63,831 nt of DNA from a virus (Duplodnaviria > Caudoviricetes): the IMG/VR virus record IMGVR_UViG_3300035670_007084, positions 1-63,831 of that record; one strand, written 5' to 3'. Below the pieces are notes generated by a model. The model was not told the DNA's origin and did no database searches. It saw nothing but the letters and a program-made list of their open reading frames with translations. Position 1 is the first letter of the stretch. The number at the start of each line of letters is the position of its first letter. The translations under genes and the position numbers were made by a program. Positions 9,618 through 60,823 of this stretch are shown here, piece by piece.

Positions 9618-10132
9618 TTGTGTTGTTCCTTTATTATTTCATTAGTTATAGTTTGTTTAAATATATCCCACGATCTCTCCCCATTTTTATTATGTGCTCC
9701 TGGGTGGTCAGTATCGTGGCTACCAATATACTTACAATTTTTGCTCGCCCACAGATATTCTTGTAGTTGATAATCAAACAAATGTTCACCATCGTGCCAA
9801 AACATATCGAATGGTTTTGAGAATGCAAAAGTTGGTAGTATGATATTTGAGTATCCCTTTAATATAATCCAATTTTTCTTTAGTTTTTCTGGCACAATAA
9901 TATCTTCTCTAACAAACGGTTCTATTGAAATAAGTAAACCATCAGAACCCATAGCATCTAGAAACACGGTACTTGAAAATCCACGATATACTCCAGTTTC
10001 AATAATAGTTTTAATATTATTTTCTTTAATAAAATTATATAAATATTCCCTAATATGAGGTTCAATTCCCAATGATTTTGTTAGTCCTAAACTTTTAATA
10101 TATTCTAAACTGTTGGTGTAGTTTCCAAACAT
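9587..10132 (-). CDS. Class I SAM-dependent methyltransferase (Methyltransf_24-like)
   Basis: IETGVYRGFSS, FDMFWHDGEH, HD. Confidence 0.85.
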   Translation of the reverse strand: MFGNYTNSLEYIKSLGLTKSLGIEPHIREYLYNFIKENNIKTIIETGVYRGFSSTVFLDAMGSDGLLISIEPFVREDIIVPEKLKKNWIILKGYSNIILPTFAFSKPFDMFWHDGEHLFDYQLQEYLWASKNCKYIGSHDTDHPGAHNKNGERSWDIFKQTITNEIIKEQHNWALAKNLMF

Positions 10133-10134
10133 AG

Positions 10135-11049: not shown

Positions 11050-11050
11050 T

Positions 11051-11692
11051 TTATTTTCCCTTTAATTTTATTATAAATATCCCAAAGAAAACTTCGGGGG
11101 CAAATGTTGGATACAAATTATCTGCTAGTGCGTGTACCACTTCACCATTTCGATTTAATCCTGCGGGTTCCATAGTAGAAAAGTTACTATAATATTTGAC
11201 CAAATCATACATATCTCTATAAGTAAAAAATCTTTTATGGTCGGGATCATTCTTCATACCTGCTTCGCTTACAGGGGAAGTAACAATAATTCTTTTCTTT
11301 GCTACCCTAAAGAATTCATTTAGAACTTTTCTTGGTTCTTCAACATGTTCCATTATTTCTGCTGCGAGAACAGTATCAAAGGTATGACTCTCAAAAGGTA
11401 TTTCCTCAGCGAAAGCTTTAACTTTTGGTATATGTGGATATAGTTTTTCTGCCTCTTGAAACCCCCAATCAGTTGGTTCTAGTCCTGTAAACTTACATTC
11501 GGGGAATGTTTGCTGTAAAAGGTTTGTTGAAAACCCATTAGCCATACCAACCTCTAGAGTTTTACCAATACAAAAACTACCAACAAATTTAATTCTGTTC
11601 TGATGCCGTTGTTGATGTAGATTGTTATTATATTGCCAATGGTTTTTCATATAATTATTCATATTTACAATATAGTTTGTCGTTGGTTTCAT
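11051..11692 (-). CDS. Class I SAM-dependent methyltransferase (Methyltransf_11-like)
   Basis: LEVGMANG, AEEIPFESHTFDTV, EIMEHV. Confidence 0.85.
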   Translation of the reverse strand: MKPTTNYIVNMNNYMKNHWQYNNNLHQQRHQNRIKFVGSFCIGKTLEVGMANGFSTNLLQQTFPECKFTGLEPTDWGFQEAEKLYPHIPKVKAFAEEIPFESHTFDTVLAAEIMEHVEEPRKVLNEFFRVAKKRIIVTSPVSEAGMKNDPDHKRFFTYRDMYDLVKYYSNFSTMEPAGLNRNGEVVHALADNLYPTFAPEVFFGIFIIKLKGK

Positions 11693-12522
11693 ACACCACC
11701 CCTTACTTTATAATCTAATCTTTTTGCCACTTGCACAGGGTGAGGGTTACTAAAGGTAATTACTTTATCTGTTCTATTACCAACCACACCACAGCAAAAC
11801 AAACCACCAGTTCCATATCTAGGATGAGTAAATTCATTACTGAAAAACGGATGTTTGTTTGTATATTCTTTAATTAACCTTTCATCAATACTACCATCAG
11901 CCCTTCTACAATTTGGATTATCTCTTCTCATATAGTAAGCAATTTTGTTATAAACTTGTTCTTCTGGTTTCATATAACCGTAATGATGTACTCTTAACTT
12001 ATCCCTATAAGCAAAAGCCATATTTTTTATTTGAGCAAATTTAAAATAATTAAGACTATCAATAGAAACAGAGTGGTGTAAGGCATAGTATCCTGTGTTT
12101 TTTAGTTTTTTAAACCCCCGTTGCATAAACTGATCCCATACTTCACCGACTATAATTGTATTATACTTTTTCCAAAAGTTTAAATGTTGAATTGCAATAG
12201 TTAAGTAATCACCTGATGCTATTGTTTGTTCTACAAGTTTTAAATTATCAACAGTAAAAACTTCATCACTATCAGGACATAAAATAAAATCACCTATGTT
12301 AGCTTCATCAACATATACCTGTCTTTGTTTTGCTTTATCTCTTTTAAAATTACCTTGTATTATCTTAACCTTTTTACCAAATGACGCAACAACATCAAGG
12401 GTGCCATCAACAGAACCATCATCAACCACAATTAATTTATCTACCAAGTCAATATATGACTCAATAGATTCTTTTAAAAACCATTCAGCATTTTTCGTTA
12501 TTATCCCACCTACTATTTTCAT
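11689..12522 (-). CDS. Glycosyltransferase family 2
   Basis: IITKN, VVDDGSVDGT, DSDE. Confidence 0.85.
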   Translation of the reverse strand: MKIVGGIITKNAEWFLKESIESYIDLVDKLIVVDDGSVDGTLDVVASFGKKVKIIQGNFKRDKAKQRQVYVDEANIGDFILCPDSDEVFTVDNLKLVEQTIASGDYLTIAIQHLNFWKKYNTIIVGEVWDQFMQRGFKKLKNTGYYALHHSVSIDSLNYFKFAQIKNMAFAYRDKLRVHHYGYMKPEEQVYNKIAYYMRRDNPNCRRADGSIDERLIKEYTNKHPFFSNEFTHPRYGTGGLFCCGVVGNRTDKVITFSNPHPVQVAKRLDYKVRGGV

Positions 12523-12716
12523 TAGTTATATTCTTCACTTTCTCTCTCAAGACTTCTGAGGTGTGATCCTGTGTCAAATTCATCCAAATCATCAATGCGA
12601 CTAAGCTCATAGTAAGGACAAGATTCTGAACATTCTTCTGCGTTTGAAAACAAACACGATCCATAATGCATACAATCCTTTCTACTTTTACTCATTAATC
12701 CCCCTCTGTTATTCAA
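12522..12716 (-). CDS. Small Cys-rich hypothetical protein
   Basis: ORF fills the gap between neighbours; C-x4-C-x7-C-x3-C pattern. Confidence 0.55.
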   Translation of the reverse strand: MNNRGGLMSKSRKDCMHYGSCLFSNAEECSESCPYYELSRIDDLDEFDTGSHLRSLERESEEYN

Positions 12717-13593
12717 TTACTTCTTGACAAAACGATAGTATATCAGATAAACATTCTCTCTCATTAAAGTTTTGGTAATCTTCTTTAGTTCCAACATTGT
12801 AAAAACCTGTTTTAGTTTTCATTGGGTTCTCTTCTGAGGTGAAGCGTTCCTGTTCGTGACCTATGATGTATGATGGAACGCCTTGTTTGAGGGCAATCTT
12901 TGGTGGTGCCGATGTTCCGCCAACGGTAAGATATGATTCCATTATTAAATCTAACATCTTTGATAATGTCATATCTTCTTTAACCATATCTTCAAACTTT
13001 ATATCAGGGAAAACATAATCACTAAATTCGTATGCACCGCTAGGTACACCAACCGTTGTTATAATACAATCGGGGTAATGTGTACCAAGCTGTAATATAA
13101 GTTTGCAATAGAATTTTTTACTAAGATTTCTGAATGCATGCATTTCTTTATTTGAATGAATATGAATACAAGGTTTCCTGTATCGTGGGAATATAAGTAT
13201 TCTATTTTTTATTCTTTGTGCAATAGTAAAAATATATGGTTTAAATATATAGAATGGTTCTAATACTTTTCTGTCCTGATAACCCAAGTTAAACTTCGGT
13301 GCAATTTCCCACTCATCACCCATTAGTTCTTTAGTGCGAACATCAAAATAATTTTTTAATTCACTTGATAACACACCGTGTCTGCCAAAACAATCGGCAG
13401 AATAAGAACCGTATTTCATAAAGAAATCATCTTCAATCCAAAGTGTTTTTATTTCTGGTTGAATTAAATCACCCCATTCTTCCTGAACCCACACTACAAC
13501 ATCGTGCCCATTATTATGTAAATAATTTGCATAGGCAGAAACATATTCAGCCCAACCCAATTCACCACAACAAGCTAACCAATAATTACCCAT
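12709..13593 (-). CDS. GT-B (GT9-like) glycosyltransferase
   Basis: N-terminal GELGW; C-terminal VGGTSAPPKIALKQGVPSYII, resembling the GT9 xSGPxHxAxxxGVP motif. Confidence 0.6.
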   Translation of the reverse strand: MGNYWLACCGELGWAEYVSAYANYLHNNGHDVVVWVQEEWGDLIQPEIKTLWIEDDFFMKYGSYSADCFGRHGVLSSELKNYFDVRTKELMGDEWEIAPKFNLGYQDRKVLEPFYIFKPYIFTIAQRIKNRILIFPRYRKPCIHIHSNKEMHAFRNLSKKFYCKLILQLGTHYPDCIITTVGVPSGAYEFSDYVFPDIKFEDMVKEDMTLSKMLDLIMESYLTVGGTSAPPKIALKQGVPSYIIGHEQERFTSEENPMKTKTGFYNVGTKEDYQNFNERECLSDILSFCQEVIE

Positions 13594-13621
13594 AATTTTC
13601 CTTTTCAGTTAATAGTTTTGT

Positions 13622-13650
13622 ATTATACCATATGAATTAATATATGTCAA
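13622..13650 (-). promoter_or_regulatory. Consensus sigma70 promoter with extended -10
   Basis: Minus strand TTGACA-17 nt-TATAAT with TG at -15/-14. Confidence 0.85.
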
Positions 13651-13659
13651 TATTTATTT

Positions 13660-14343
13660 TTAACTATTTAATCCCCATATTAAACCATTACGCATTCTTT
13701 CTTCTCTGATGATAGTATCTCTTTCCTTATGAATACGACCAAGTTTGTGGGTATCATCTATTTCTGCTAGTTTAAAGGCGGGGTGATAATGATTAACACT
13801 CTGATTTGACATCTTAAAGGCATCTACAGCGTTAGCATACCAATGTAGTTCTTGACAAGCAAACAACCAATACTGTGGATTAAGAAACTGTTTATTATGG
13901 TATCGTTGTAAAAACTTCTGCCCTATTAATGCAACGCCTGTTGGATGAAAGTCGGGTAAGGTTTGTTGAATACCAAGAACACCATCATCGTTGGGGAAAC
14001 ATACATTAAATTCTTCGATTAAACTGTTGATATTAAATTTATCGTTAGGTAGCTCCATATCATCACATAAAAATAACAACCCATCATTAACATCTCTTGC
14101 CATCATATTTCTGCAATAAACAGAACCCATATTGTGATCCGTTAAATATAACTCCATATTGGCTAGTTTATTATTTAGTTCTTTACCTTCTTTTATTATA
14201 TGTTCAAGATGTTTCTTTCCGTTTGAATCATTATCAAAACAAACTCTAACCTTTATATTAGATTGGTTTGGTATAGAGTGTAATAATCTTATTAGTGGAT
14301 AGAACCTATTTCTTGTAGGAATTATTATATCAATATCTTTCAC
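13660..14343 (-). CDS. Glycosyltransferase family 2
   Basis: IIIPTRNR, CRN, LFLCDD. Confidence 0.8.
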   Translation of the reverse strand: MKDIDIIIPTRNRFYPLIRLLHSIPNQSNIKVRVCFDNDSNGKKHLEHIIKEGKELNNKLANMELYLTDHNMGSVYCRNMMARDVNDGLLFLCDDMELPNDKFNINSLIEEFNVCFPNDDGVLGIQQTLPDFHPTGVALIGQKFLQRYHNKQFLNPQYWLFACQELHWYANAVDAFKMSNQSVNHYHPAFKLAEIDDTHKLGRIHKERDTIIREERMRNGLIWGLNS

Positions 14344-26104: not shown

Positions 26105-26530
26105 TTACCCCACTTTCTTGATAGCTTGATATTCTTTTTCAATTGCTTTTAGCATTGATTGAAATGTTCCTATAAATTTTTCAGACATATCAACATATGC
26201 ACCAAACACATTCCTTGTTTTCCTTATTAAATCTGTGGTAACAGTGGCGGTATTTCTAGCTACTGTTATTTTTTCCGATTCACTTGCTATAATAGCCTTA
26301 CCACTAAGAGTTTCAATATGAGCATCGAGTAATACTGTTGGTAGAATTAAATCACCATAGTAACCTGAACAATAATTGAGAGCTTCCCTTATTGTATCAG
26401 CGTGAAAGTAATATCCGAGGCATAAATTATCTTTTATTTTTTCTACTTCATTGAATGTTTCTCTATATGAGAAAATTAAATCCTCATATTTTTCTCCCTC
26501 TAAAAATAATTTAATATCATTGTATCGCAT
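26105..26530 (-). CDS. Helical protein downstream of recA (possible UvsY-like mediator)
   Basis: Position and helical composition only; function is inference. Confidence 0.4.
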   Translation of the reverse strand: MRYNDIKLFLEGEKYEDLIFSYRETFNEVEKIKDNLCLGYYFHADTIREALNYCSGYYGDLILPTVLLDAHIETLSGKAIIASESEKITVARNTATVTTDLIRKTRNVFGAYVDMSEKFIGTFQSMLKAIEKEYQAIKKVG

Positions 26531-26536
26531 TATACA

Positions 26537-27490
26537 TTACTCCGATTCTTCTGTCAAGTTATCTTTTTCAGATGGTTGTGTGAATCCGCTTTCATAATAG
26601 AATAAGGTATGCCATTCTGTTCCTTCTGCTTTACACCCCGTAATCTTATGTTTTTCAATTTTAAATACTATATCAAATCCTATTGGTTTGTCAACTGTTT
26701 TTACTGATTCTTTTCCGTCTTTAATAGTATGCTCTTTAACCTTCTGTATTGGTGCATCTGTAGAAGAACCTTTACGGATATATAGGATGAGCATAGCAAA
26801 GTGTTTAAGCGCATTACCACCTGTTAATACAAGCTTATTGCCATATCCACCGATGTTTGCTCTACCTTGACCTATAAGAAACACAGCAACCTTACTTTTA
26901 AATATGTGATCCTTTGTTCCTCTTATAAACTTACCCATCTTTTTAGCAAGTAAAGCCATCTCATCTTCTTTTATTTCTCGATCCTGTGTCTTTGCTTTGG
27001 TGTTATACTGTTCTGAATGTGGACTCATTGCTTGAACGCTATCAACCACTATTAAATCAACAACATTTTCTTTTGCTAGTGTCTTACTGATTTCCATTGC
27101 CTCTTCTGCAGTTTCACATTCTTCAATAAGAACTAGTTCATCGGTATTGACACCAAATAGCTTTGCTCTTTCAGTATCCCAAGTGTGTTCTAGGTCAATT
27201 AAAGCACATATTTTTCCATTCTTCTGACTGGTAGCTATAAGACTAAGCGCACTAGCTGACTTACCACAACCAACCTCACCATAGATAACACTAAAGTTAC
27301 CCATTAAGATACCGTTGCCTATGTTTGTATCAATCGCTTCTATACCAAAGGATAATCTTTCTTTTACTTCGTGATCAGATGCGAATTTAATTACATTATC
27401 TTTATTGTTCCTATTAAACTCACCAATAATCTTAGAAAGTTTTTCTCTTCTTTTATTATTTTCTGCCTGTTCTTTAGTTTTTCTAGCCAT
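26537..27490 (-). CDS. recA: RecA/UvsX-like recombinase
   Basis: Walker A GEVGCGKS, IDLEH, Walker B VVDSV, TGGNALKH. Confidence 0.92.
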   Translation of the reverse strand: MARKTKEQAENNKRREKLSKIIGEFNRNNKDNVIKFASDHEVKERLSFGIEAIDTNIGNGILMGNFSVIYGEVGCGKSASALSLIATSQKNGKICALIDLEHTWDTERAKLFGVNTDELVLIEECETAEEAMEISKTLAKENVVDLIVVDSVQAMSPHSEQYNTKAKTQDREIKEDEMALLAKKMGKFIRGTKDHIFKSKVAVFLIGQGRANIGGYGNKLVLTGGNALKHFAMLILYIRKGSSTDAPIQKVKEHTIKDGKESVKTVDKPIGFDIVFKIEKHKITGCKAEGTEWHTLFYYESGFTQPSEKDNLTEESE

Positions 27491-27712: not shown

Positions 27713-28050
27713 TATTTTTCCTCCACATTATTTGCTTTATATACTATTTCAAAAAAATCATCAAGGTTTAATACGGCAAATCTATTACCGCTATTATTTT
27801 CCAATACATATAGAGGAATCTTTAATGAATAGATTGATAATGATGATGCTAATTTATTCCAAATATCTTGCTTAAAGGTTACATCTTTTGTGTTTCGTTT
27901 CTTACATTCAACTTGAAATAGTTTATTAACTACATCACTCTTAACACCCTTCGCACCTGAGGTAGAGCTACGTTTAGCATACTTATCTAATGGTAACAGT
28001 TTACTGACAACATAATCTTCTAATACATTTCCTACTTCTCGTTTGTTCAT
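27712..28050 (-). CDS. Hjc-type PD-(D/E)XK Holliday junction resolvase
   Basis: GNVLE, SGA, SDV, VECKK. Confidence 0.75.
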   Translation of the reverse strand: MNKREVGNVLEDYVVSKLLPLDKYAKRSSTSGAKGVKSDVVNKLFQVECKKRNTKDVTFKQDIWNKLASSLSIYSLKIPLYVLENNSGNRFAVLNLDDFFEIVYKANNVEEK

Positions 28051-28568
28051 TTTAACACCCCTACAATACCTAGAATAACAGCATCAATAACATTGTTATC
28101 GGCAAAATTTATTCCGGTTGTGTTAGAAAATTCTTCTTGAACTTCTTCTTTCTTTGCTTTAGATGGTAGATTTAATTTACATCTAGCTTGTGATGCAAGA
28201 ATAAATTGTGATGGTATATTTAGTTGCCGACATAAGGCATAAACAATCATCCCTATCCTTGTCATAAAGATAAGAGCTTTAACATTACGACCAAAGAATA
28301 CATCCTCAACTACTGCAAAATCAACCTTATTGTTTTTAAGTATCTCACTAAAATAACCGTATGCTATATCAAAGCGTTCCTGTTGGCTTTTAATCTTACT
28401 CATATCAAGCAAGTCGGGTGTAATATGCACATCAGTATCATCTGTTCTAACTAGTGCTATACCACTTATCGTAGCAGTATCCACACCAAAAGCACTACAG
28501 TTCTTTTTTATTCGTATATCGAGTATGTGTTCAAGTTTTTTTATACTAATTTTTATCATGATATACAC
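28047..28568 (-). CDS. ruvC: RuvC-like Holliday junction resolvase
   Basis: GVDTATISGIA, VVEDVF, AKKEEV, NNVIDAV. Confidence 0.8.
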   Translation of the reverse strand: MYIMIKISIKKLEHILDIRIKKNCSAFGVDTATISGIALVRTDDTDVHITPDLLDMSKIKSQQERFDIAYGYFSEILKNNKVDFAVVEDVFFGRNVKALIFMTRIGMIVYALCRQLNIPSQFILASQARCKLNLPSKAKKEEVQEEFSNTTGINFADNNVIDAVILGIVGVLK

Positions 28569-31505: not shown

Positions 31506-32375
31506 TTACAATTTAAGTTGTAGTTGTTTACGCTTTTGTTTTTGCTTTTTCTTTCGTTGTTCTTTTTTTTCAATTATACTTAGACTTTTTTCATAGGTGA
31601 TAATGTCCTCCTCACTGTAGTCGTTATTCAAAATTGTTTCAAGTTTGTGTAACATATTTCTGTATGGAAAAGAAGCAATATTATAGCATTTATTTTGTAT
31701 GGTGTCAAGATAAATCTTGATTGTTTCTTCAATTTGTTCGGGTAACTCTATTAAAGAAACCGCCATCTTTCTTAACTCATAATCAACTTCTGTGTTAACT
31801 ACTTCTTTTAGATTATCGCTAACCTCTTTACCTATAATCTTTTTCGATAATATTTCCAATGGATTAGTAACATTAATATATCTTTTCATATAAGGATTAT
31901 ATATTTTAACATTGGGGAAATGATATAATTGTTGTAGATCAGAATCCCTAGATATAATAACTATTTCGTGTTCACTATAATACCTACATACAACACTTAT
32001 TATATCATCTGCCTCTAGAGCAACGGTTTGATTATTAAAATCTGACCGTAAACTTATAAAATAAAATGGGGTTGATTCATCTAGTTGTTCTCGTAACCTA
32101 TTCATATTAGAATATTCTGTTTCAAAATCAATACCGGATTTTAATCTTAGTTCTGCTCTATTAGCTTTATAGTGCGGTGATATTGTCTTACGCCAATTTG
32201 TTGCAGTATGGTTATCTACACATACATATATTATATCGTTAAGACTTGCACCTATATTCTTTAAATCAGACAATAACATATTACAACATAACCAAGCAGA
32301 ACTAATACTAGATTTAGCATAGATAGCTGTATGTATATAGTAACCCCAATCAACACATATTATTCTTTCTTTCAT
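31506..32375 (-). CDS. 5'-3' exonuclease (T4 RNase H/FEN-like)
   Basis: VD, WRK...YKANR, EADDII, SRDSDLQQL, SDN. Confidence 0.9.
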   Translation of the reverse strand: MKERIICVDWGYYIHTAIYAKSSISSAWLCCNMLLSDLKNIGASLNDIIYVCVDNHTATNWRKTISPHYKANRAELRLKSGIDFETEYSNMNRLREQLDESTPFYFISLRSDFNNQTVALEADDIISVVCRYYSEHEIVIISRDSDLQQLYHFPNVKIYNPYMKRYINVTNPLEILSKKIIGKEVSDNLKEVVNTEVDYELRKMAVSLIELPEQIEETIKIYLDTIQNKCYNIASFPYRNMLHKLETILNNDYSEEDIITYEKSLSIIEKKEQRKKKQKQKRKQLQLKL

Positions 32376-36869: not shown

Positions 36870-37766
36870 TTAATCCTTCGGCTTTCTTCTCCTTGTAGGT
36901 TTAATCGAAATAGCTCCTTCAACTTTCTTGTCGTACTCTGCAAAGGATGCTTCTTGGTCAGGATCGACATATAACATTGTTGTTGCTAAACTTCGATGTC
37001 CTAATAGTTTTTGAATATGTCTTATGCTAACTCCTTGTCTATGTAAGTTATTAGCATATGAATATCGGAGTAGGTGGGGGTTAAATTTGTTGAGTGGAGA
37101 ACCTTCCTTTAAGCTTTTAAAGAAATGATTCATTTCTCCTATTGTCATATTGAAAGCATTCTCTTTTTCGATGGGATCTTTTTCAAAATATTCTTTTAAT
37201 AAATCAGCAACTGTCTTAGGAAACTTAAAGAACTTTGTTTCTTTAACTCGTCTAACTGCCTTGGGTTCTAGAATAGTTACAACTCTGTTAGTTAAATCAA
37301 TTTCCTTTCTTTTAAGGTTTAGAAATTCATCTTTTCGTATTCCGGTATAGAACATAAACCATACAATAGCTTTAGATTTTTCGGGTATTATCCAATCAAA
37401 GCAAATAGTTGCTGTATCAACTATTCGGGACAACTCTTCAATTGAATAATACCCAGGGTGTTTTCTGTTTACCTTCAATAAACTAAATGACTTAACCATA
37501 TTTAAAGTTGATTCGGGAATTTTATTTAGTTTAAATAGGAAATTTGCTAGATGTTTTATAGCTTTGATATAGTTATTAACTGTTCCTGTTTGATGTGTTT
37601 GCTTCAAGCTGTTTAAATATTCCATAAGAATGTTGTATGTAATGTCAGTGTATGATAGTTCTTTTTGTTCTAAAAACAGTAGGAAATTTTTGGTACGGAC
37701 ATAATAGTTCTTATCATACCCCGTAAATTCTAACTCAATCTGATATAGTTTTAAAATATCTTCCAT
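36870..37766 (-). CDS. XerC/D-like tyrosine recombinase
   Basis: TGIRKDE, PHLLRYS, LLGHRS, TMLY. Confidence 0.92.
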   Translation of the reverse strand: MEDILKLYQIELEFTGYDKNYYVRTKNFLLFLEQKELSYTDITYNILMEYLNSLKQTHQTGTVNNYIKAIKHLANFLFKLNKIPESTLNMVKSFSLLKVNRKHPGYYSIEELSRIVDTATICFDWIIPEKSKAIVWFMFYTGIRKDEFLNLKRKEIDLTNRVVTILEPKAVRRVKETKFFKFPKTVADLLKEYFEKDPIEKENAFNMTIGEMNHFFKSLKEGSPLNKFNPHLLRYSYANNLHRQGVSIRHIQKLLGHRSLATTMLYVDPDQEASFAEYDKKVEGAISIKPTRRRKPKD

Positions 37767-37777
37767 AATAAACCCCC

Positions 37778-37806
37778 ATTATACCACAGTTAATTTGAAA
37801 TGTCAA
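37778..37806 (-). promoter_or_regulatory. Consensus sigma70 promoter (extended -10) for the recombinase/sigma genes
   Basis: Minus strand TTGACA-17 nt-TATAAT with TG; the -10 box ends 11 nt before the ATG. Confidence 0.85.
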
Positions 37807-38845
37807 TCGGAATTTTCTCTTTGAGTTTATTAAGCATTGCCCTGCCCTCATCAGTTAATGTTCTTCCTCTTGGTGTTCTTGATATTAATCCATTCTTAAA
37901 TAAGAATGCTTCCTTGTTTAGATAGTTCTTGTTTGATGTTCCTAAGAAAGAACAGATAGCTTGTATACCAACAATATTTGATTTACTAATACACTCCAAT
38001 ATTTTTAAATCATCTTTGGTATATCCATTGTCTAATACATTCTGATTATATAACGCTGATTGCACATTACCATCAAGATAATATGTTGATCTTAAATAAG
38101 ATATAGCAGTTCTTGGAGTGTTTCGTGCATTCCTAGAAATGATTTTATAAATAGATTCACAATCACCTGTCAAGTCATTAAATTCGTGGGCTTTAAGCTG
38201 CCTTAAAATCTTTATTATATCATCTTCTGTATAACCATCTAGCTGAACTTGTAATGGAAACCTTTGAACAAAGGGTTCACATTTCTCAATCATTTCTCCA
38301 TACTCAGTAGTGCATCCTATTAATGTGAACGGTGTTAAAGCCTGCCCATTAAAACTAAAGTCTGTTAATATTGTATACATTTTTTCAACAACCATTCTTT
38401 CTAATGCGTGGCATTCATCTAACACAAATATACCACCGTCTAACTGACGAATAGCATTAACAAAGAACTCAATCGTTGGAATGGTAGTAGCAATACACTC
38501 ATAGTAGTGTGTGTTTACTCTTCTAGCATTAGCAAACTCTTTAGCAAATATTCTTGCTAAAGTTGTTTTGCCACATCCTGGCAACCCCGATATTAATAAA
38601 TGTGGTGGTTGTTTTTTTCTTGCTATCACTCCTTTAATATAGCTCTGTAATAAAGTCTTTGCTTTATGTTGACCTATATATTCATCAAAAGATTGTGGAG
38701 TATAGTGAGTTGATTTTTTATCAACATCATTATATTCTATAGAAGGAAAACAATCATCAGATAAATTAAAAATATCAGTTGGTTGTTTTTTTAACCATTT
38801 GCCAACCAACCAAGCAAAAAATATAACAAATAATACAACTTCCAT
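37790..38845 (-). CDS. ruvB: RuvB-like AAA+ ATPase with N-terminal hydrophobic helix
   Basis: PQSFDEYIGQ, GLPGCGKTT, LDECH, PFTLIGCTT, RNTPR, RTPRGR. Confidence 0.88.
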   Translation of the reverse strand: MEVVLFVIFFAWLVGKWLKKQPTDIFNLSDDCFPSIEYNDVDKKSTHYTPQSFDEYIGQHKAKTLLQSYIKGVIARKKQPPHLLISGLPGCGKTTLARIFAKEFANARRVNTHYYECIATTIPTIEFFVNAIRQLDGGIFVLDECHALERMVVEKMYTILTDFSFNGQALTPFTLIGCTTEYGEMIEKCEPFVQRFPLQVQLDGYTEDDIIKILRQLKAHEFNDLTGDCESIYKIISRNARNTPRTAISYLRSTYYLDGNVQSALYNQNVLDNGYTKDDLKILECISKSNIVGIQAICSFLGTSNKNYLNKEAFLFKNGLISRTPRGRTLTDEGRAMLNKLKEKIPIDISN

Positions 38846-50969: not shown

Positions 50970-51515
50970 TCAATCAAGCCTTGAGCTTGAGTAGCATTTA
51001 ATGTTATATTTTCCCAACACTTTCGCAAAGGCAGAAGCCCAAGCTTCTTTTCTAGTTATGCTTTGATTAAATAAACTGCACCATATAGAATATCCACCGC
51101 CATAACTTTTTCCCTCAACAATGCCATTCTTTTTTAACCATCTTGCAAATGGTTGTGTTGCAGGGGAAACTACAACCCACGCAAACCCACAAGCACCTTC
51201 GTCTACATACCATTGTTTTCCCCCAACAATTCCCTCGCTAACTATCATTGGTGTTGGTATAGCATTTTTTCCTGCCTCAATTCCTGCATTCATAGCCTCA
51301 TCATATATCGCTTTATAATCAACGGTTTCAGTTTTAACTTTTTTCACCTGCCTAATTCCCTCATATAATTTAGGATCAAATTCTTTTCCTGCTTTTAAAT
51401 CCCCAATTAATTTTGATGCATCATCACACGATAGATTACAATTTCTCACATCCCAACCTGTCATACAGAATATTGCCCAAGTCTGTCTTGATGTTGCCTT
51501 ATTTAATGTTAACAT
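50970..51515 (-). CDS. Hypothetical phage protein
   Basis: CGFAWV, QSITRKEAWASAFAKVL, SRLD. Confidence 0.7.
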   Translation of the reverse strand: MLTLNKATSRQTWAIFCMTGWDVRNCNLSCDDASKLIGDLKAGKEFDPKLYEGIRQVKKVKTETVDYKAIYDEAMNAGIEAGKNAIPTPMIVSEGIVGGKQWYVDEGACGFAWVVVSPATQPFARWLKKNGIVEGKSYGGGYSIWCSLFNQSITRKEAWASAFAKVLGKYNIKCYSSSRLD

Positions 51516-51701
51516 TTTTTTCCCCTTCCTTTGTGGTTATTAGTTTTTCTTTCTTAACTAATCCGGAACCTTTACACATATTACATACAGAATTTTTCTC
51601 ATATAAACTAGAACCATACCCATTACAATTAGGACATTCCACATACCCATACTTTTCAGGATTACACATTACTTCAAAGTCCAACATTTTTCCCCCTTCT
51701 T

Positions 51702-52082
51702 TTAATTGTTAATAATGGTAACACTCATATATTTTTTTCCCCACTTTAAAGCTTCATTATGACTTGGCATATATATATCAATATGCTTTATATGATTATT
51801 TTTGTCGCCAAATAAACTTTTCGCACCTCTATCCTCAACGGTATAAATTTTTCCCCCAATCAAAAGCTTTGTTTTAAATGGCAACCAATTACAAGCAACC
51901 GCACCATCATACACTTTTTTTCCACTTGCCATCAATCCATATGCAGGATTATTAGGTTTTTTCCCACAGCATTTTTCACAAGCACAATATGCAGTTAAAA
52001 GCCACTTTTCGTTCAATTTTTCTGCAAAACAATTCCCACTAATAAAAACAAACAACAGCATCCCTGCAATAATTTTTCTCAT
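51702..52082 (-). CDS. 3D-domain protein (peptidoglycan lytic transglycosylase-like) with signal peptide
   Basis: TAYCACEKCCGK, MASG, VEDRG, IDIYM..HNEALKWG. Confidence 0.85.
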   Translation of the reverse strand: MRKIIAGMLLFVFISGNCFAEKLNEKWLLTAYCACEKCCGKKPNNPAYGLMASGKKVYDGAVACNWLPFKTKLLIGGKIYTVEDRGAKSLFGDKNNHIKHIDIYMPSHNEALKWGKKYMSVTIINN

Positions 52083-52601
52083 AACAAACTCCTTTAAAAT
52101 GAGAATGTTATTAATTTTTCTAGTATTTCTTGTTTTTTATATTCTTTGTTTTTTTTCTTATCAAAAATTCCCTCATATTTAGGATCGATCATATGATGTT
52201 TTTTTCCACAACCCATTTTTGAGTAAATATAGCAACAAAACAGAAAAGGAATAGCAAATAATGCGCCCATTTTTTCCCCCTTAATTTACTGCTTAATTGT
52301 TCTATTGATGCAGGTTAAATAAAAAGCTATATCTGCAAATTTTCCCTCAATAATATGAACTAATAAACAAATCGCATACATATACAATTTTTTATATTTA
52401 CTCATTTTTTTTCCCCTCACTTCTGCCTTATAATTAAGGCAAATTTTTTTCCCCACAAAAAGTCCCACTAATAGCTTTTCTCACACCCCCGCCCACCCGC
52501 ACACGATAGTAAATATATAATAGCTAGTATAGACTATACATAGTAGTTAATAGATAGTATTTATTTAAGTAAATAATATTTATGATATTATTATGAATTG
52601 A

Positions 52602-52630
52602 ACGCACACACGCACACACGCACACGCACG
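52602..52630. repeat. Alternating purine-pyrimidine tract
   Basis: acgcacacacgcacacacgcacacgcacg. Confidence 0.85.
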
Positions 52631-52688
52631 AATATATACTATAAATATATTATAATATAATATAGGTATACTATACACTTATTATAGA

Positions 52689-52705
52689 CGCAAAAGCAAT
52701 GCCAA
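52689..52705 (-). promoter_or_regulatory. sigma54-type -24/-12 element
   Basis: TTGGCATTGCTTTTGCG (GG-N10-GC). Confidence 0.65.
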
Positions 52706-52738
52706 ACCTTGCAATATGTAAAAAAATCATATTGAAAA

Positions 52739-52755
52739 GTGGCATTGTTATTGCT
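52739..52755 (+). promoter_or_regulatory. sigma54-type -24/-12 element
   Basis: GTGGCATTGTTATTGCT (GG-N10-GC). Confidence 0.6.
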
Positions 52756-53369
52756 TAGTCTTTTGCCTTTTCAATTAACTTGAATGCCTCTAAACTCGCA
52801 TTTATATCGTCAATCTCTGTCATCTCTATTGAGTGAGCAATCGCTTTTGAAAGCGCCTCTCTGTAGACTTTATAGCACCCTCTAACCACTTGATATGACA
52901 GCGAGTCATTCTCTCGCTTGGTTATACCCTCGCAGAGTGCGAGATACACTTCACTCACAAAATCGTCAAGTGTTAATGCGTTAGCGAGTGTATACCCTCG
53001 TTTATTCGTGAAGGTTTCCTCTCTCTGCGCCTCTATATACTTTCGTATTGACGGCTTTTCATTCTCTCTTGCGAGTGTTACTCTTGCACTCTTGCCCCCA
53101 CGATTACAAAGCTTGAAATACATACCTGTTGCAATACTCTTGAAGGTTGCGAGATGTTCATTTGTCAATCGAATTTTAACCTCTTGCACCTCTTGCACCT
53201 CTTGCAATGTTCTTTTGCTTTTCGATACGGCATCATTGACAAGCTGAAAAAAAAGCTCTCTGCCTTTCGTTAATCTTTTCATTCTCGCAAGGTGCAATAG
53301 TTCTTTTAAATTGCATTGACTCATTAACTCGCTAAACTCTCTTGCCTCTCGCTCTCTTGTGTTATTCAT
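52755..53369 (-). CDS. Hypothetical protein with a sigma region 2-like segment
   Basis: GGGAG RBS; TLDDFVSEVYLALCE. Confidence 0.6.
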   Translation of the reverse strand: MNNTREREAREFSELMSQCNLKELLHLARMKRLTKGRELFFQLVNDAVSKSKRTLQEVQEVQEVKIRLTNEHLATFKSIATGMYFKLCNRGGKSARVTLARENEKPSIRKYIEAQREETFTNKRGYTLANALTLDDFVSEVYLALCEGITKRENDSLSYQVVRGCYKVYREALSKAIAHSIEMTEIDDINASLEAFKLIEKAKD

Positions 53370-53418
53370 TGCCTGCTCCCTTCATTTTAAAAAACCGTTA
53401 TTGTAAAAGAACAACGGC

Positions 53419-53447
53419 ATTTTATAAAAAAACCTTTAGCGAGTCAA
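53419..53447 (-). promoter_or_regulatory. sigma70-type promoter
   Basis: Minus strand TTGACT-17 nt-TAAAAT upstream of the ATG at 53369. Confidence 0.65.
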
Positions 53448-53448
53448 T

Positions 53449-53483
53449 AAAAAAAGCGAGAGAGTAAAAAACACTCTCTCGCT
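53449..53483 (-). terminator. Intrinsic terminator
   Basis: 11-bp stem agcgagagagt/actctctcgct followed by a U-run on the minus strand. Confidence 0.85.
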
Positions 53484-53498
53484 CTCTCTATTGTGAGC

Positions 53499-53786
53499 TT
53501 AAAAAACAAAATCATTCAAAGTTATTTCATCAAGAACAAGCTGTTCTTTTACACTCTTAACTCGCAACGCAACCTCAAATGTTTTACCATTGATTTCAAC
53601 ATAGCTTTTACTGCCACCACTCAACCATTGAATGCCACAAGCATCTATGAATGACTGACTCGGTTGCATCTCTGCAATTAACTTGCCGTTAACCACTTTC
53701 GCATTGATAGTGTTGATGTCATTCAATGCTTTGATTGCCTGATTGCGCTCTTGTTTTTCTCTCTCTGTCATTTCAGTTCTTTTCAT
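53499..53786 (-). CDS. Hypothetical protein, first gene of the leftward arm
   Basis: Probable start MKRTEM at 53786 with GAAAGG RBS; followed by a terminator. Confidence 0.7.
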   Translation of the reverse strand: MKRTEMTEREKQERNQAIKALNDINTINAKVVNGKLIAEMQPSQSFIDACGIQWLSGGSKSYVEINGKTFEVALRVKSVKEQLVLDEITLNDFVF

Positions 53787-54027
53787 TGTCTTTTGCCTTT
53801 CGTAAAGGTTGTTATTGTGAAGTGCTTTTGCACCTCTCACAATAGAACTGAACGCAGCTATCACCCACAAGCTCGAAAGGTGCTATAAAGTGTTGAGAAT
53901 AAAAGAGTTATAACAATATGCAGAAAATTTAAAATAATCAAAAAAGAGCTTAACTCATTGTAAATAAAAGAGTTATGAAAAGAGCAACATCTAAACTCAA
54001 TGGAAATTATTATAGCTTTTAATAAAA

Positions 54028-54044
54028 TGCAAATGGTATGCCAA
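54028..54044 (-). promoter_or_regulatory. sigma54-type -24/-12 element
   Basis: TTGGCATACCATTTGCA (GG-N10-GC). Confidence 0.7.
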
Positions 54045-54051
54045 AAAAAGG

Positions 54052-54068
54052 TTGGCATAGAAATTGCA
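54052..54068 (+). promoter_or_regulatory. sigma54-type -24/-12 element
   Basis: TTGGCATAGAAATTGCA (GG-N10-GC). Confidence 0.7.
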
Positions 54069-54515
54069 GTATCTTTACAATATGATATTTTACTCTATGG
54101 TATGATAGTCTACCTTAGACTATAATATCATATCACTAGTAATACCATACACTTACAATATAATATCATATGGTATGGTATTATTACGCATACTTGTATA
54201 TTATATAGATCACACTACCACACTAAAGACCTAACAACATACATATCAATCACTTACAACAACACAAACAATACTAGTAAGCTACTAGTAGTTGAATCTC
54301 ACTAGTAAACTTTCCGCTACTAATCAACTTAATTGATACATTAGAACTGTTGGCTAGTAAGCTAGGTTCACTCAGGAGCTATTATAATATAATAAGTGGG
54401 GCTTGGGTAGTTTTTAGCACGATAGTTAATCCTAGGGCATTATATGCTTAATAAATGGGTGGGTGGAATTTATCGGATAACTATTAATCTTTTTAAATAT
54501 AATTAAAAATAATGC

Positions 54516-54543
54516 TTGACAATTGTTAAAAAATAAGTATAAT
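54516..54543 (+). promoter_or_regulatory. Consensus sigma70 promoter of the rightward operon
   Basis: TTGACA-16 nt-TATAAT. Confidence 0.8.
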
Positions 54544-54585
54544 ACATACTAATGATATTTAATAAATATTTTATGGAGTTAATGT

Positions 54586-55422
54586 GTGGGCGAAAAATTA
54601 ATAAGTGTATTATGTATTGTTAAGAATGGTGATACTTTTTTAGAGCAGGCTTTGGGTAGTGTTCGTCCTTATGTAGATCAGGTGGTTGTTGTGGATAATA
54701 ATTCAACGGATACTACTGCAAGTATTGCTCGTAAGTTTGCTGATGTTTTTATTTGTAAGGACTATACCTCTCTGTTTTATGAGAATAAGAAAGAAAAGAC
54801 TACTGAAGATAAAGTGCGTGTTAATCAGAAGAATGATGGTCTTAAGCAAGCAGTGGGTAAGTGGGTTTTAGTTTTAGATGATGATGAGGTTTATTCGGAA
54901 GAGGATATGCTTAGATTTAAATATCATGCTAAACATTATGATGGGGTTCAGCAGCGGATTTCTTTTATGCATTTTTGGAAAACCCCTTATCAACATATTA
55001 CCGGGTTTGTGTGGAAAAATTGTCCAGAAAGATTCTATCATAGAATTGATGGTATGTTCTATGATAAGAAAGAAGATGCTGTTCAGCGTAGTTGTGGTAA
55101 GTTTGATTGGGAGTTTGGTATTGATCAATTTCCTAAAGTTAAATGCTTACATTACTCTTATTTAAAACCATCTGAATTTATATTTAATAAAATTAAATCG
55201 TATATGATTAAAGGTAGCCCCTATACAACAGAAGAACAAATTGTTAGAGCAATTTTACGACACCCTTACTTTTCTAATAACTTTAATCATAATATGGAGG
55301 GTAAGGATGGGGTGTTTTTTGCCGGAAGTAAAAAGGGTTATAGAGATAAATTAGTTAATTGTGATTTAAGTGTTCATCCAGATTTTATGATTAAAAGATT
55401 TAAAGAACTTAAACTATTATGA
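54586..55422 (+). CDS. Glycosyltransferase family 2
   Basis: CIVKNG, VVDNNSTDTT, LVLDDDE. Confidence 0.87.
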   Translation: MGEKLISVLCIVKNGDTFLEQALGSVRPYVDQVVVVDNNSTDTTASIARKFADVFICKDYTSLFYENKKEKTTEDKVRVNQKNDGLKQAVGKWVLVLDDDEVYSEEDMLRFKYHAKHYDGVQQRISFMHFWKTPYQHITGFVWKNCPERFYHRIDGMFYDKKEDAVQRSCGKFDWEFGIDQFPKVKCLHYSYLKPSEFIFNKIKSYMIKGSPYTTEEQIVRAILRHPYFSNNFNHNMEGKDGVFFAGSKKGYRDKLVNCDLSVHPDFMIKRFKELKLL

Positions 55423-55988
55423 AAACTATAGTTATAGATATTGATGATGTTCAGGATAAGTATATAGAGCAAATTGATAAGTTAGTTAAGTTAAATAAGT
55501 TAATTCATAATATTAAGTTTACTTTGTTTTATGTTCCTAATCTATTATCTCAAGAATCTAGAACTTATATAAACTTGTATAAAAACTTTTTAGAATTGGT
55601 TCCTCATGGGCTTAATCATACTCTTTATGAGTGTAAAGATTTAAATTATGACGATAGTTTTTATTTATTGGGGTTAGTTAAAAATAAAACTAATGGGTTT
55701 AAAGCACCTAACTGGTTGGTATCACAAGAGTTATTAGAATGTATTAAAGATTTAGATATGTGGATTGCTGTTCATCCTAAGCAAGAACAATTAGCTAAAG
55801 AAATTGGTTGTAAGTATTATTGTTATAATAGTTTAATTACGGCTCCTTTTGATAAAGAACTTACTAAAGCCACTGGGCATATTCATATTGATTGCTATCA
55901 CGATGATATTGATTCTGCATGGTATAATTTAATTAAGCTAGTTGATATGAAAAATGTTGAGTATAAGTTTGTTAGTGATTTTTTTTAA
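55419..55988 (+). CDS. Polysaccharide deacetylase (NodB-like)
   Basis: IDIDD, PHGLNH, GFKAPNW. Confidence 0.78.
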   Translation: MKTIVIDIDDVQDKYIEQIDKLVKLNKLIHNIKFTLFYVPNLLSQESRTYINLYKNFLELVPHGLNHTLYECKDLNYDDSFYLLGLVKNKTNGFKAPNWLVSQELLECIKDLDMWIAVHPKQEQLAKEIGCKYYCYNSLITAPFDKELTKATGHIHIDCYHDDIDSAWYNLIKLVDMKNVEYKFVSDFF

Positions 55989-56798: not shown

Positions 56799-57320
56799 AT
56801 GAATATTTACTTTGGTGAAAATGTAGCTATTTCAGATAATATAATAAAAACAAATAAAATTAAAATAAAACAAACTCTTGTCGAAAAACCATATTATTTA
56901 TTATTTAAATATAGAAAAAAACTACTTGCAAGAAAAACAAAATATGAAACTTTACTTGAAGAAGAGTTAATATATAATAAAATATTATATTTACCACAAA
57001 CTATAATACACCCATATATTGTAGATTTCTTATTACCAGATAAAAAAACAATAATTGAATTAGATGGGGAATATCATTCTAGTCAAGAAGCCGTTGCATA
57101 TGATAACAGAAGAACAAATTATCTAGAACAATATGGATTTTCATTATTAAGATATAAAAACGACTTGACAATTTCTAATATGAATGATATAATAACAGAC
57201 ATTATTAATATAAAAAGTGATTATAATAATTTTAATTATACTACTCGTATTCTTAATTTAATAGAGTGTGGAAAAAAAACAAAAGCATTAGAGCTTGCTA
57301 ATAGATTTATTACATTATAA
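56799..57320 (+). CDS. DUF559/Vsr-like PD-(D/E)XK endonuclease
   Basis: TKYE, Q, YIVDF, IIELDGEYH, YDNRRTNYLEQYGFSLLRYKN; AAGGA RBS before the ATG at 56799. Confidence 0.87.
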   Translation: MNIYFGENVAISDNIIKTNKIKIKQTLVEKPYYLLFKYRKKLLARKTKYETLLEEELIYNKILYLPQTIIHPYIVDFLLPDKKTIIELDGEYHSSQEAVAYDNRRTNYLEQYGFSLLRYKNDLTISNMNDIITDIINIKSDYNNFNYTTRILNLIECGKKTKALELANRFITL

Positions 57321-58921: not shown

Positions 58922-59225
58922 GAAAAAACTAAAGCTCGATAATTACGAGATTGATATAATTTTTTCGGATTCCCCTAGGCATATAGTAACTAATAAAATT
59001 GTAGCTGATAACTCAGCTAGGGCAGATGTTGTTAGGTCTGATAGTGATGAAAATGAGTTTACGATAGTTTTCTATGATTTTTCAAATATTGAATCAGATG
59101 TAATTCACGAACTGCTACATATTAGATTTTGGGATGTGTGTAAAAAATATAAATATAAGAAACTAAACAACTTAGAGCACGATTTCATAGAGGCGTTAAT
59201 TCCTATTTGGTGTAATGTATGCTAA
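58866..59225 (+). CDS. HExxH zincin-like metallopeptidase
   Basis: VIHELLH with a downstream Glu. Confidence 0.65.
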   Translation: MVKKRIPKKKLLNLVRKYKKKLKLDNYEIDIIFSDSPRHIVTNKIVADNSARADVVRSDSDENEFTIVFYDFSNIESDVIHELLHIRFWDVCKKYKYKKLNNLEHDFIEALIPIWCNVC

Positions 59226-60823
59226 AAAAATTGAGTGAAGAAGAACAAATATTGTTTGAATGTCTTTGTATGTCTAGAAGTTTTGTTGAGATTATGTTTA
59301 GTAATCTTGATAATCTACTTGAGTTTGAAGATGAAAAATTTGCGTTCATTAGACCATATCAGGAAACGATGTTATCATATGAATACTCAGTTGCTACCGA
59401 TCCAGAACTTTCAGATAAAGAAAACTTTTTAAGAAAGAAAGGTGCTGGTGATAGTTATGCTATTGCTAGTCGAAGAATTGGTAAATCATTAGTATTTCTA
59501 ATATGTGATATGTTGCAATCAATTATGTTACTTGCTGGATGTGAAACAGCGTTTGGTTCATACGATGCAAACCATGTTAGAAAAATATTTTCAAGTATTA
59601 TTCCGGTTGTTGAATATCATCCTTGTTATAAAGGTATAAAGAAAGTTTATAATCAAACCCCACAATACTTATATATAGGTAAGAATGGAATGAAAATTAG
59701 TGGGGTTAATGAGAATGCTATAAACCAAAGAAAAGCTGGTGAAAACTGGATTGGGCTTCATCCTATGAAAACATGGTATGAAGAAATCAGCAGATGGTGT
59801 TCTGTTGCACAAGAGAAGCAAACAGAAGCTGTATCAGAGCTTGGTGTTATTTTTAGAGGAAGTGGTATGGCTGATTGCACAAAGAATTCCCCGGCTGGTG
59901 AAATAGTTTCCGATAGAAGAAATAAAAACATTATTATTAATTATAGTCAGTTTGTTAATCCAACCTGGGATGAGTATACACGCAAAGAATCTTTAAAGAA
60001 ATATAAAAGCGAGGCATCGTTTGGTTGGAAAGTATATGTTCTTGGTGAGTTAGTTGAAGATGGTTACTCGGCTTTAGATATGAAGCTTGTTAGTGAATGT
60101 TACAACGACACCACAGAAATAAAAAACATAGAAATAAACAAAACAACTTTTTCATATTATCAGGATTTGTTGATTGTTGATAAGCCAAAAGATGCAGAAT
60201 GTACTTATATAGCTACCGATATATCAGATATTGGAACGACAGAAACCGTTATAATATTTGATACATTGTCTGGTTTAAAGTATAGGTATAACATAACTAT
60301 GCTAGGGCTCACGGATGAGCAAATTTATTTAGTGTTAAAATTTCTTGGAGAGAAGCTTGGTGCCAATGTATTAGCATTGGATTGTGGTGAGGCAGCTGGG
60401 CGTGGAGTATCAAGGCGGTTATTAAAAGATTTCTCCGCTGAAAATATTTTTGAATATGCTGGTAATAAAAAAATAGTTGTTGAATTTGAAAGAACAAAAG
60501 ATAACTATTTAAAATATGATACCGCTGGCAAAGCAATTGTTAAAGAAGAGTTTATGTCAGAATGGGCAGTTCAAATAATAAAAGAAATTTTTTATAATAA
60601 AAGAATAGACATACCAATTGATCATAAATTAGATGAGCAACTAAGCAAGCTTGTTTCTACTAAGTCGGGTAACAGAGTATTGTATGCTATAAGTGGTGAA
60701 GATCATTTATTTGATGCCTTTAAAGTTTTTTGTTGTGCGTGGTGGCAGAATCACTTATCAATAATATCACCGATTAAAAAGAAAAAGTTTTGCAAAACCG
60801 GAGTTACTACTGTAAATAGATAG
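59219..60823 (+). CDS. Terminase large subunit
   Basis: RPYQ, Walker A SRRIGKS, Walker B WYEE; nuclease IATD, LALD, DHLFDAF. Confidence 0.88.
   Translation: MLKKLSEEEQILFECLCMSRSFVEIMFSNLDNLLEFEDEKFAFIRPYQETMLSYEYSVATDPELSDKENFLRKKGAGDSYAIASRRIGKSLVFLICDMLQSIMLLAGCETAFGSYDANHVRKIFSSIIPVVEYHPCYKGIKKVYNQTPQYLYIGKNGMKISGVNENAINQRKAGENWIGLHPMKTWYEEISRWCSVAQEKQTEAVSELGVIFRGSGMADCTKNSPAGEIVSDRRNKNIIINYSQFVNPTWDEYTRKESLKKYKSEASFGWKVYVLGELVEDGYSALDMKLVSECYNDTTEIKNIEINKTTFSYYQDLLIVDKPKDAECTYIATDISDIGTTETVIIFDTLSGLKYRYNITMLGLTDEQIYLVLKFLGEKLGANVLALDCGEAAGRGVSRRLLKDFSAENIFEYAGNKKIVVEFERTKDNYLKYDTAGKAIVKEEFMSEWAVQIIKEIFYNKRIDIPIDHKLDEQLSKLVSTKSGNRVLYAISGEDHLFDAFKVFCCAWWQNHLSIISPIKKKKFCKTGVTTVNR

Follow-up and report, generated by a model that had tools for sequence, protein, structure and literature searches.

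Two divergent pairs of sigma-54-type -24/-12 elements flank a small gene module at the strand switch of a subsurface phage genome fragment

Introduction

Sigma-54 is the one bacterial sigma factor unable to start transcription without an ATP-driven activator: its holoenzyme binds as a closed complex, which an AAA+ enhancer-binding protein must remodel. To our knowledge, phages are not thought to rely on it. Here we describe four elements of the sigma-54 -24/-12 type in a 63,831-nucleotide tailed-phage record (Caudoviricetes; IMG/VR IMGVR_UViG_3300035670_007084, analysed over its whole length and called the window below). They form two back-to-back divergent pairs on either side of a small two-gene module that sits between the two gene arms, and are named sites A to D in the order of their coordinates (Table 1). 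Our tentative reading is that they are sites for the host sigma-54 holoenzyme which would act as activator-dependent divergent promoters.

Bacterial -24/-12 promoters have a TGGCAY-N5-TTGCW core with GG-N10-GC spacing, a purine after TGGCAY and W after TTGC, and this is also the form of the phage sites. Among the Escherichia coli sites listed in Table 1 of PMC4591121, the hycA/hypA and zraP/zraS pairs are divergent sigma-54 pairs at the junction of two operons, as in the phage. The motif centres of these pairs are ~128 and 154 bp apart, which leaves room for activator sites, whereas the phage cores are separated by 9 and 35 bp; the phage further differs in having no linked activator gene, long distances to the genes and one antisense site. 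The same source describes non-productive intragenic and antisense sigma-54 sites, which are bound without being obvious promoters and in this resemble site B and the dense arrays that we find in other contigs. Those E. coli sites are scattered singly in the chromosome, while the phage sites occur as phased clusters in control regions.

Among phages the nearest parallel is Pseudomonas phage YuA, the only published phage sigma-54 case that our literature search found. It depends on sigma-70 and sigma-54 according to a passage in PMC10914365 citing Ceyssens et al. 2008, and in its annotation (NC_010116) three promoter-trap-active fragments are marked '-24/-12 consensus'. Like our phage, YuA is tailed, has no activator in its annotated record and has sigma-54-type promoters reported beside sigma-70 promoters. 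Its fragments, however, are single and lie inside the late structural region, neither paired nor at a strand switch, and in our own scan no plus-strand sequence in them came within 2 mismatches of the consensus. Our search of the full-text literature, which does not extend to subscription-only papers, brought to light no account of phage genomes with paired or clustered sigma-54 sites.

Another comparison is offered by the stoperators of the mycobacteriophages L5 and Bxb1, which are short and asymmetric, occur in many copies per genome and depend on orientation for their effect. Stoperators belong to a single immunity group and are recognised by the phage's own repressor; the motif described here, unlike them, is common to unrelated phages and matches the consensus of a host sigma factor.

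Four sigma-54-type sites in 1.4 kb

The window is the entire record, a linear 63.8-kb fragment of ~32% GC from a subsurface metagenome, with a CheckV completeness of ~46% of the genome. The original prediction, made from the bare sequence, had placed four TGGCAT-N5-TTGC elements with exact GG-N10-GC spacing in it; cores, strands, form and spacing all agree with our analysis, and in every one of the four the GG and GC doublets are exactly 10 bp apart within the sigma-54-type core. A scan of the whole record for clustering, which had been proposed as a check, came out in favour: the pattern TGGCATNNNNNTTGC (TGGCAT-N5-TTGC) has exactly four matches, all inside 1.4 kb, while 100 dinucleotide-preserving shuffles gave a mean of 0.12 and a maximum of 3, none reaching four. 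When up to 2 mismatches to TGGCAY-N5-TTGCW were allowed with GG-N10-GC kept, 21 matches were obtained, with the four sites top-ranked. Only B, C and D have no mismatch; A has one (G at the W position), as do two other matches, both intragenic, at 2912 (+) and 60921 (-). The spacer is rigid, with 5 matches of the TGGCAY form at N5 and none at N2-N4 or N6-N9.

As had been claimed, the two divergent pairs bracket the strand-switch module, with two orphan genes, P0001 and P0002, between them. The A/B pair, its cores 35 bp apart, lies just beyond the stop of P0001, between a 60-aa open reading frame (ORF, 52286-52468) and the end of this 204-aa gene. The C/D pair is upstream of P0002, in a gap that runs from 53787 (or 53871) to 54585; its cores are 9 bp apart, and the 7 bp given in the original prediction is correct for the 17-mers. 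The statement that all four lie outside coding sequence is essentially right, with the reservations that the last base of site B touches the P0001 stop codon (52755) and that C and D are overlapped by mechanically called ORFs, these being of 65 and 41 aa only. Sites A, C and D are co-oriented with the next gene, while site B is antisense. From the 3' end of site A it is 222 nt to the first minus-arm ORF start (52468), and a sigma-54 promoter at this site would start transcription near 52678. For site C the distance is 243 nt to the P0002 ATG (53786), or 159 nt if the alternative TTG (53870) is taken, and site D is 519 nt from the first plus-strand gene (54586). Site D overlaps a sigma-70-like TTGGCA-18-TACAAT (10 of 12), an overlap that A, B and C lack.

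Both pairs are imperfect inverted repeats (I5, with 24-nt arms that are 75% complementary, and I18, with 15-nt arms that are 87% complementary). Within the pairs the N5 spacers are not kept complementary, which points to selection on the bipartite motif and not on a hairpin stem. In site C the two half-elements are alike, TTGGCAT and TTTGCAT, one helical turn apart. We considered the pairs as terminal inverted repeats of a mobile cassette and dropped the idea, as the left and right pairs match only at the motif positions. Nor did an identity as a pac or cos site, recognised by a small terminase, find support, the terminase-like gene of the window being 5 kb off and DUF5681/TerL neighbours being confined to ~20 of 80 loci elsewhere.

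Table 1. Coordinates of the four sites, of the features around them and of the perfect sigma-70 promoters in the window
Feature	Position	Strand	Remarks
Site A	52689..52705 (15-nt core 52690-52704)	-	TTGGCATTGCTTTTGCG; faces replication/early arm
Site B	52739..52755 (core 52740-52754)	+	GTGGCATTGTTATTGCT; antisense into 3' end of the 204-aa gene
Site C	54028..54044 (core 54029-54043)	-	TTGGCATACCATTTGCA; faces two-gene module
Site D	54052..54068 (core 54053-54067)	+	TTGGCATAGAAATTGCA; faces structural arm
P0001, orphan, 204 aa	52755..53369	-	between the two pairs
P0002, orphan, ~95 aa	53499..53786	-	ATG at 53786; mechanically called ORF starts at TTG 53870
Sigma-70-like promoter, TTGACT-17-TAAAAT (10 of 12)	53419..53447	-	precedes P0001
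GC-rich palindromic hairpin	53455..53483		T/A runs on both sides; between P0002 and P0001
Gene-free AT-rich leader with short repeats	52470..52688		downstream of site A
Gene-free AT-rich stretch	54069..54515		after site D; TTAYAATATRATA repeats, ACTAGT palindrome cluster
Perfect sigma-70 promoter, TTGACA-N16/17-TATAAT	13622-13650	-
Perfect sigma-70 promoter, TTGACA-N16/17-TATAAT	26529-26557	-
Perfect sigma-70 promoter, TTGACA-N16/17-TATAAT	31680-31708	-
Perfect sigma-70 promoter, TTGACA-N16/17-TATAAT	37778-37806	-
Perfect sigma-70 promoter, TTGACA-16-TATAAT	54516..54543	+	43 nt before first plus-arm gene
Perfect sigma-70 promoter, TTGACA-N16/17-TATAAT	57165-57193	+

The motif in other viral contigs and in bacterial genomes

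The divergent-pair pattern (gap 5-35) was found in 97 stretches of viral contigs, and its reversed control, equal in composition, matched none. For the other two orientations the counts were at least 120 stretches with tandem pairs and 83 with convergent ones. In 50 of these records TGGCAY-N5-TTGC has ~286 matches, tightly clustered, against 8 for the reversed pattern, 100 of the ~286 being present by the selection of the records. A spacer test on 80 loci gave 377 matches at N5 and 0-5 at each of N2-N4 and N6-N9. At positions that the search pattern left free (356 distinct sites) there is T before TGG in 53%, R after TGGCAY in 92% and R next to that in 75%, and after TTGC there is W in 86% and G in 2%. 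The E. coli sigma-54 sites confirmed by chromatin immunoprecipitation in Table 1 of PMC4591121 have the same preferences by eye, and the phage sites also fit the consensus TGGCAC-N5-7-TTGCT quoted in PMC12316311.

The contigs that bear the motif span 28-67% GC and have no common protein family within 4 kb of the pair, except for a cluster of DUF5681 (terS-like) and TerL genes in ~20 of the 80 loci; a motif so widely held without a shared neighbour points to a conserved host factor and not to a phage-specific one. Some contigs carry dense arrays, with 21 sites in 6.5 kb (L120), 9 tandem sites (L117) or 8 sites in 240 bp (L187). The last of these, at L187:2949-3187 on a 383-kb contig from a Chitinophagales metagenome-assembled genome (MAG), has 7 of its 8 sites as a one-strand tandem array immediately before a 208-aa ORF. 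Many small ORFs surround it, and it is likely to be the control region of a prophage. Bacterial genomes seldom carry triple-site arrays: the genome collection gave 10 matches, five of them in Bacteroidota MAGs, and 8 of the 10 array-bearing genomes encode a Sigma54_DBD protein. Similar clusters in hundreds of unrelated viral contigs lend support to the sigma-54 assignment, and on its sequence, the rigidity of its spacer, its recurrence across phyla and its presence in rpoN-positive genomes, the motif appears best assigned to the host sigma-54 holoenzyme.

Gene context and spacing of the sites in other phages

Gene context was scored in the AT-rich loci, the set where long ORFs can be trusted. 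Seventeen of 32 scorable pairs lie at a (-,+) divergent gene junction, an arrangement seen in 16% of 377 adjacent ORF pairs, and the two sides of these junctions often hold terS-like, TerL or portal genes on the one hand and small early genes, including GP88 and DUF7249, on the other. The window repeats this layout, down to a GP88 gene in its minus arm. In another viral record, all four isolated plus-strand sites (G010, 4 of 4) lie 67-267 nt upstream of plus-strand ORFs.

The gaps between neighbouring sites are far from uniform (counts over loci L085-L181 and L201-L400, lineage redundancy included). Divergent gaps (n=83) peak at 6-8, 10-11, 16-18 and 20-22 bp, and none falls at 12-15 bp; tandem gaps (n=133) peak at 9-15 and 21 bp, with a single one at 16-19 bp; and convergent gaps peak at 5 bp (17 of 73). 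Because spacing is so strongly non-uniform and its peaks recur about every 10 bp, these data suggest joint occupancy of adjacent sites at a fixed rotational setting.

Sigma-70 promoters of the same phage

Six perfect TTGACA-N16/17-TATAAT promoters occur in the window, on both arms and all co-oriented with the local genes (Table 1), and seven more matches reach 11 of 12 positions. Of the 73 genes, 42 have a Shine-Dalgarno-like tetramer in front of them, compared with a frequency of 10% at random positions. Together these signals point to a host that uses canonical sigma-70 promoters and Shine-Dalgarno sequences rather than those of the Bacteroidota type. With sigma-70 promoters present, the sigma-54-type sites would form an additional layer of control. 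Sigma-54 would then not be the sole or main route of transcription, and this weakens the earlier suggestion that the phage ties early and late transcription to sigma-54 signalling.

Searches for relatives

No DNA match to the record was found in the phage collection, and no close loci for the terminase-like protein or P0001 were found in viral contigs. Against cultured phages the terminase-like protein had no tblastn match, and PolB matched only below 25% identity. A terminase profile retrieved 80 distant loci at 32-44% identity (0.9 Mb). Contigs from three DNA runs of one study represent the same strain with zero base differences and are thus uninformative on constraint. Among the sequencing runs, no RNA run was found to contain the phage. 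Searches with large proteins and with array-region DNA found no cultured, host-labelled relatives of the motif-bearing contigs. Among 16 terminase-like homologues, three longer ones (P0007, P0011 and P0018; 698-933 aa) contain intein or Hint domains (PF14890 with PF14528, PF05203 or PF01079), so inteins invade this terminase-like family.

Activator-dependent promoters as a tentative reading

Read as promoters, the two pairs would be docking places for host RpoN RNA polymerase around the small regulatory module at the arm junction. Transcription from A would enter the replication arm, that from D the structural arm and that from C the orphan gene pair, while B would give an antisense or insulating transcript or serve merely as the partner of A. 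Since the closed complex waits for AAA+ remodelling, the sites would add a conditional input, dependent on host signals and additional to the constitutive sigma-70 promoters. An activator would come either from the host or from a gene in that half of the genome which the record lacks. What we show is the motif, its statistics, its placement and its recurrence in other phages; that sigma-54 binds, that the sites act as promoters and where an activator would come from, we infer.

Several observations weigh against this reading, one being the lack of an activator in our searches of 51 records (this one and 50 that bear the motif). As the original prediction had noted, no GAFTGA-type motif occurs in six frames of the window, and the record, at its ~46% completeness, also has no Sigma54_activat match. 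Across the 51 records this profile gave weak AAA+ matches in 3, one barely above the cut-off, and no convincing enhancer-binding ATPase was found in any of them. With perfect sigma-70 promoters on both arms, the sigma-54-type sites are not needed for basal expression. The distances of A, C and D from their genes (222, 243 or 159, and 519 nt) exceed most E. coli cases, which for sense sites other than outliers run from 18 to 254 nt from the gene start (Table 1 of PMC4591121). Site B is aimed antisense at the 3' end of a gene, and two holoenzymes may not fit side by side on the C and D cores, with their 9-bp gap. Sites that elsewhere lie 20-26 bp apart, or converge at a 5-bp gap, cannot all be working promoters.

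The wider survey also contributes points of this kind. In the GC-rich loci, pairs are not enriched at junctions (10 of 35, with a baseline of 23%). On crude ORF calls, which are unreliable in GC-rich loci, 72 of 107 isolated sites in 85 loci are opposite to the locally dominant gene strand, and an ORF start on the same strand lies within 350 nt of only 48 of the 107 (27 of 107 in a flipped control). Many of the contigs counted are related to one another, so that the counts exceed the number of independent events. The 80 terminase loci held four scattered matches (0 in the reversed sequence) and no clusters; the same paired sites, whose presence in related phages had been proposed as a check, are therefore absent from these relatives, which are too distant for a decisive result. 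The original sigma-54 interpretation is thus supported in part: as to the form of the elements, their clustering at the strand switch beyond chance and the lack of an activator encoded in the available sequence. Neither the proposed site for integration host factor (IHF) nor the check on conservation in these distant relatives lends it support.

The IHF match that had been pointed out at 54244-54256 exists, at a level expected by chance: the pattern WATCAANNNNTTR matches the window 13 times where 10.6 would be expected, and as many matches or more turned up in 31 of 100 shuffles. It also lies downstream of site D and not upstream, and we rejected an IHF-assisted sigma-54 architecture for this locus. 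No upstream activator binding sites were identified near the four sites. None of the 51 viral records encodes a sigma-54 DNA-binding domain. No match to the T7-type RNA polymerase family appeared in the 51 records, in a search that is uninformative, as its control likewise matched nothing anywhere. One complete 41-kb record (G024) encodes a 419-aa AAA_5 ATPase of the MoxR/dynein type (L115:1606-2865), the third gene downstream of a plus-facing site; its Sigma54_activat match is weak (E 4e-4) and does not reach the cut-off, and we regard it as a candidate non-canonical activator.

Alternative readings

The holoenzyme might also dock without firing. On this account, which we consider unlikely, sigma-54, free or as holoenzyme, binds the sites without making RNA, and the stable closed complexes serve as a structure or a sink: they could insulate the module from the arms, tag or shield a junction or end of the genome, or titrate sigma-54 or polymerase and thereby dampen host responses that depend on sigma-54. 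It would explain why no activator gene was found in 51 records and why sigma-70 promoters already serve both arms of the window. Many E. coli sigma-54 sites are likewise bound and never fire (PMC4591121). The very dense, activator-free arrays elsewhere, with sites 20-26 bp apart in all three relative orientations and a phased spacing that suggests joint occupancy, fit docking better than they fit promoters. Four sites, however, are too few for much titration unless the genome copy number is high; a divergent junction has no incoming transcription to block, apart from that of P0001 towards the minus arm; and both the placement at junctions and the co-oriented isolated sites of G010 look like promoters. 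In its broadest form, to which we give no greater credence, phages of many bacterial phyla, with helically phased site clusters at their arm junctions or ends and no activator gene, would exploit the silent and uniquely stable closed sigma-54 polymerase complex not as a promoter but as a back-to-back nucleoprotein plug, insulator or sink. Such a complex might organise or protect a control region, or disable sigma-54-dependent host responses, with the pairs of the window, again improbably, as its minimal version.

The reader of the motif could instead be some other DNA-binding protein, of the phage (P0001 or P0002, for example) or of the host, whose operator resembles a sigma-54 site by appearance; this we hold to be doubtful. 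The motif can be read as a TKGCA direct repeat with an 11-bp pitch, as bound by tandem winged-helix dimers, and the halves of site C are indeed alike and one turn apart. The module between the pairs encodes two orphan proteins, helically phased arrays in all orientations are typical of transcription factors or iterons, and in ~20 of 80 loci the pair is just upstream of a DUF5681 (terS-like) gene and TerL, where pac or cos sites lie. Yet operators of phage-specific repressors normally differ between phages. Contigs with GC contents from 28 to 67% have this one 15-nt motif in common and share no neighbouring family beyond the one terminase cluster. P0001 is ruled out as a common reader, since none of the 1.84 billion representatives is related to it, and the terminase-like gene of the window is 5 kb away. 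The unselected positions follow the sigma-54 consensus, and 8 of 10 array-bearing bacterial genomes encode sigma-54. Far less probable than any of this is that the matches are chance or a by-product, with TTGGCA serving as a sigma-70 -35 element or the pairs as arms of hairpins or terminators. The sigma-70-like overlap of site D, the imperfect inverted repeats and the position of A/B directly after the P0001 stop would suit such an origin. It is opposed by the shuffles, 0 of 100 of which gave four matches, by the spacers, which are non-complementary within pairs, by the conserved TTGC half, which a -35 role leaves unexplained, and by the real sigma-70 promoters of the phage, which use TTGACA.

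Recurring phased clusters without an activator gene suggest an unrecognised coupling of phages to a host regulatory machine, or a hijacking of it. Should the sites prove to be activator-dependent promoters, as we tentatively prefer, host stress or nutrient signals would gate phage development through host activators; should they be silent docking sites, closed polymerase complexes would gain a structural or decoy role. In either case the motif could mark rpoN-positive hosts for uncultured phages.

The orphan module and its flanks

P0001 matched nothing in Pfam, PHROG or the Protein Data Bank (PDB) and P0002 nothing in Pfam or PHROG, loose thresholds included, and an exhaustive profile search of the 1.84 billion representatives gave no relative of P0001. 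Its single-sequence fold prediction has a pLDDT of 38.6. In the Atlas, structural matches to P0001 are weak and sigma-70 region-2-like (TM 0.31-0.42), a weak hint that leaves such a fold an unconfirmed candidate, and P0002 has no structural matches there.

The hairpin between the two genes, which comes before the sigma-70-like promoter of P0001, looks like a terminator. A further terminator-like hairpin followed by a T-run, at 53394-53418 (-), is situated between that promoter and the start codon, and might act as an attenuator in the leader. The gene-free leader that follows site A contains a (CACACG)n/(ACGCACAC)3 microsatellite (52602-52629). On the other side of the module, ACTAGT palindromes cluster at 54272-54307, and 7 of the 37 CTAGTA matches of the window fall inside 54136-54359; the microsatellite and this cluster may represent iterons or operators. 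Two stretches, 52721-52739 just upstream of site B and 54073-54091 just downstream of site D, form a 19-nt inverted repeat (89% complementary) in which CAATATGAT occurs, and related TTAYAATATRATA copies are found at 52650, 54075, 54153 and 54382. These repeats could constitute a second regulatory motif. Rfam gave nothing near any gathering score in 51500-55500, and the 3 NrdR-box-like matches in the window (3.0 expected) all lie away from the site region.

Gene arms and other features of the record

The minus-strand arm (~7.7-52.5 kb) holds replication and nucleotide functions: PolB, a primase-polymerase, RecA, RuvB- and RuvC-like proteins, class II ribonucleotide reductase, dUTPase, dCMP deaminase, two C5 methylases, a tyrosine recombinase, GP88 and DUF932. 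The plus-strand, structural arm extends from 54.6 kb on and includes the terminase-like protein (59219-60823) and a 601-aa ChaB-bearing protein; the two genes of the orphan module, both on the minus strand, sit between the arms. No tRNA genes were found in the record. The RecA-, RuvC- and RuvB-like proteins and the tyrosine recombinase are encoded at 26537-27490, 28047-28568, 36870-37766 and 37790-38845 (-), and a complete RuvB homologue (RuvB_N plus RuvB_C) is unusual for a phage. At 8002-14343 (-) two radical-SAM/SPASM proteins, two or three methyltransferases and two GT2 glycosyltransferases are clustered, and these may form a phage-borne cassette for peptide, glycan or DNA modification.

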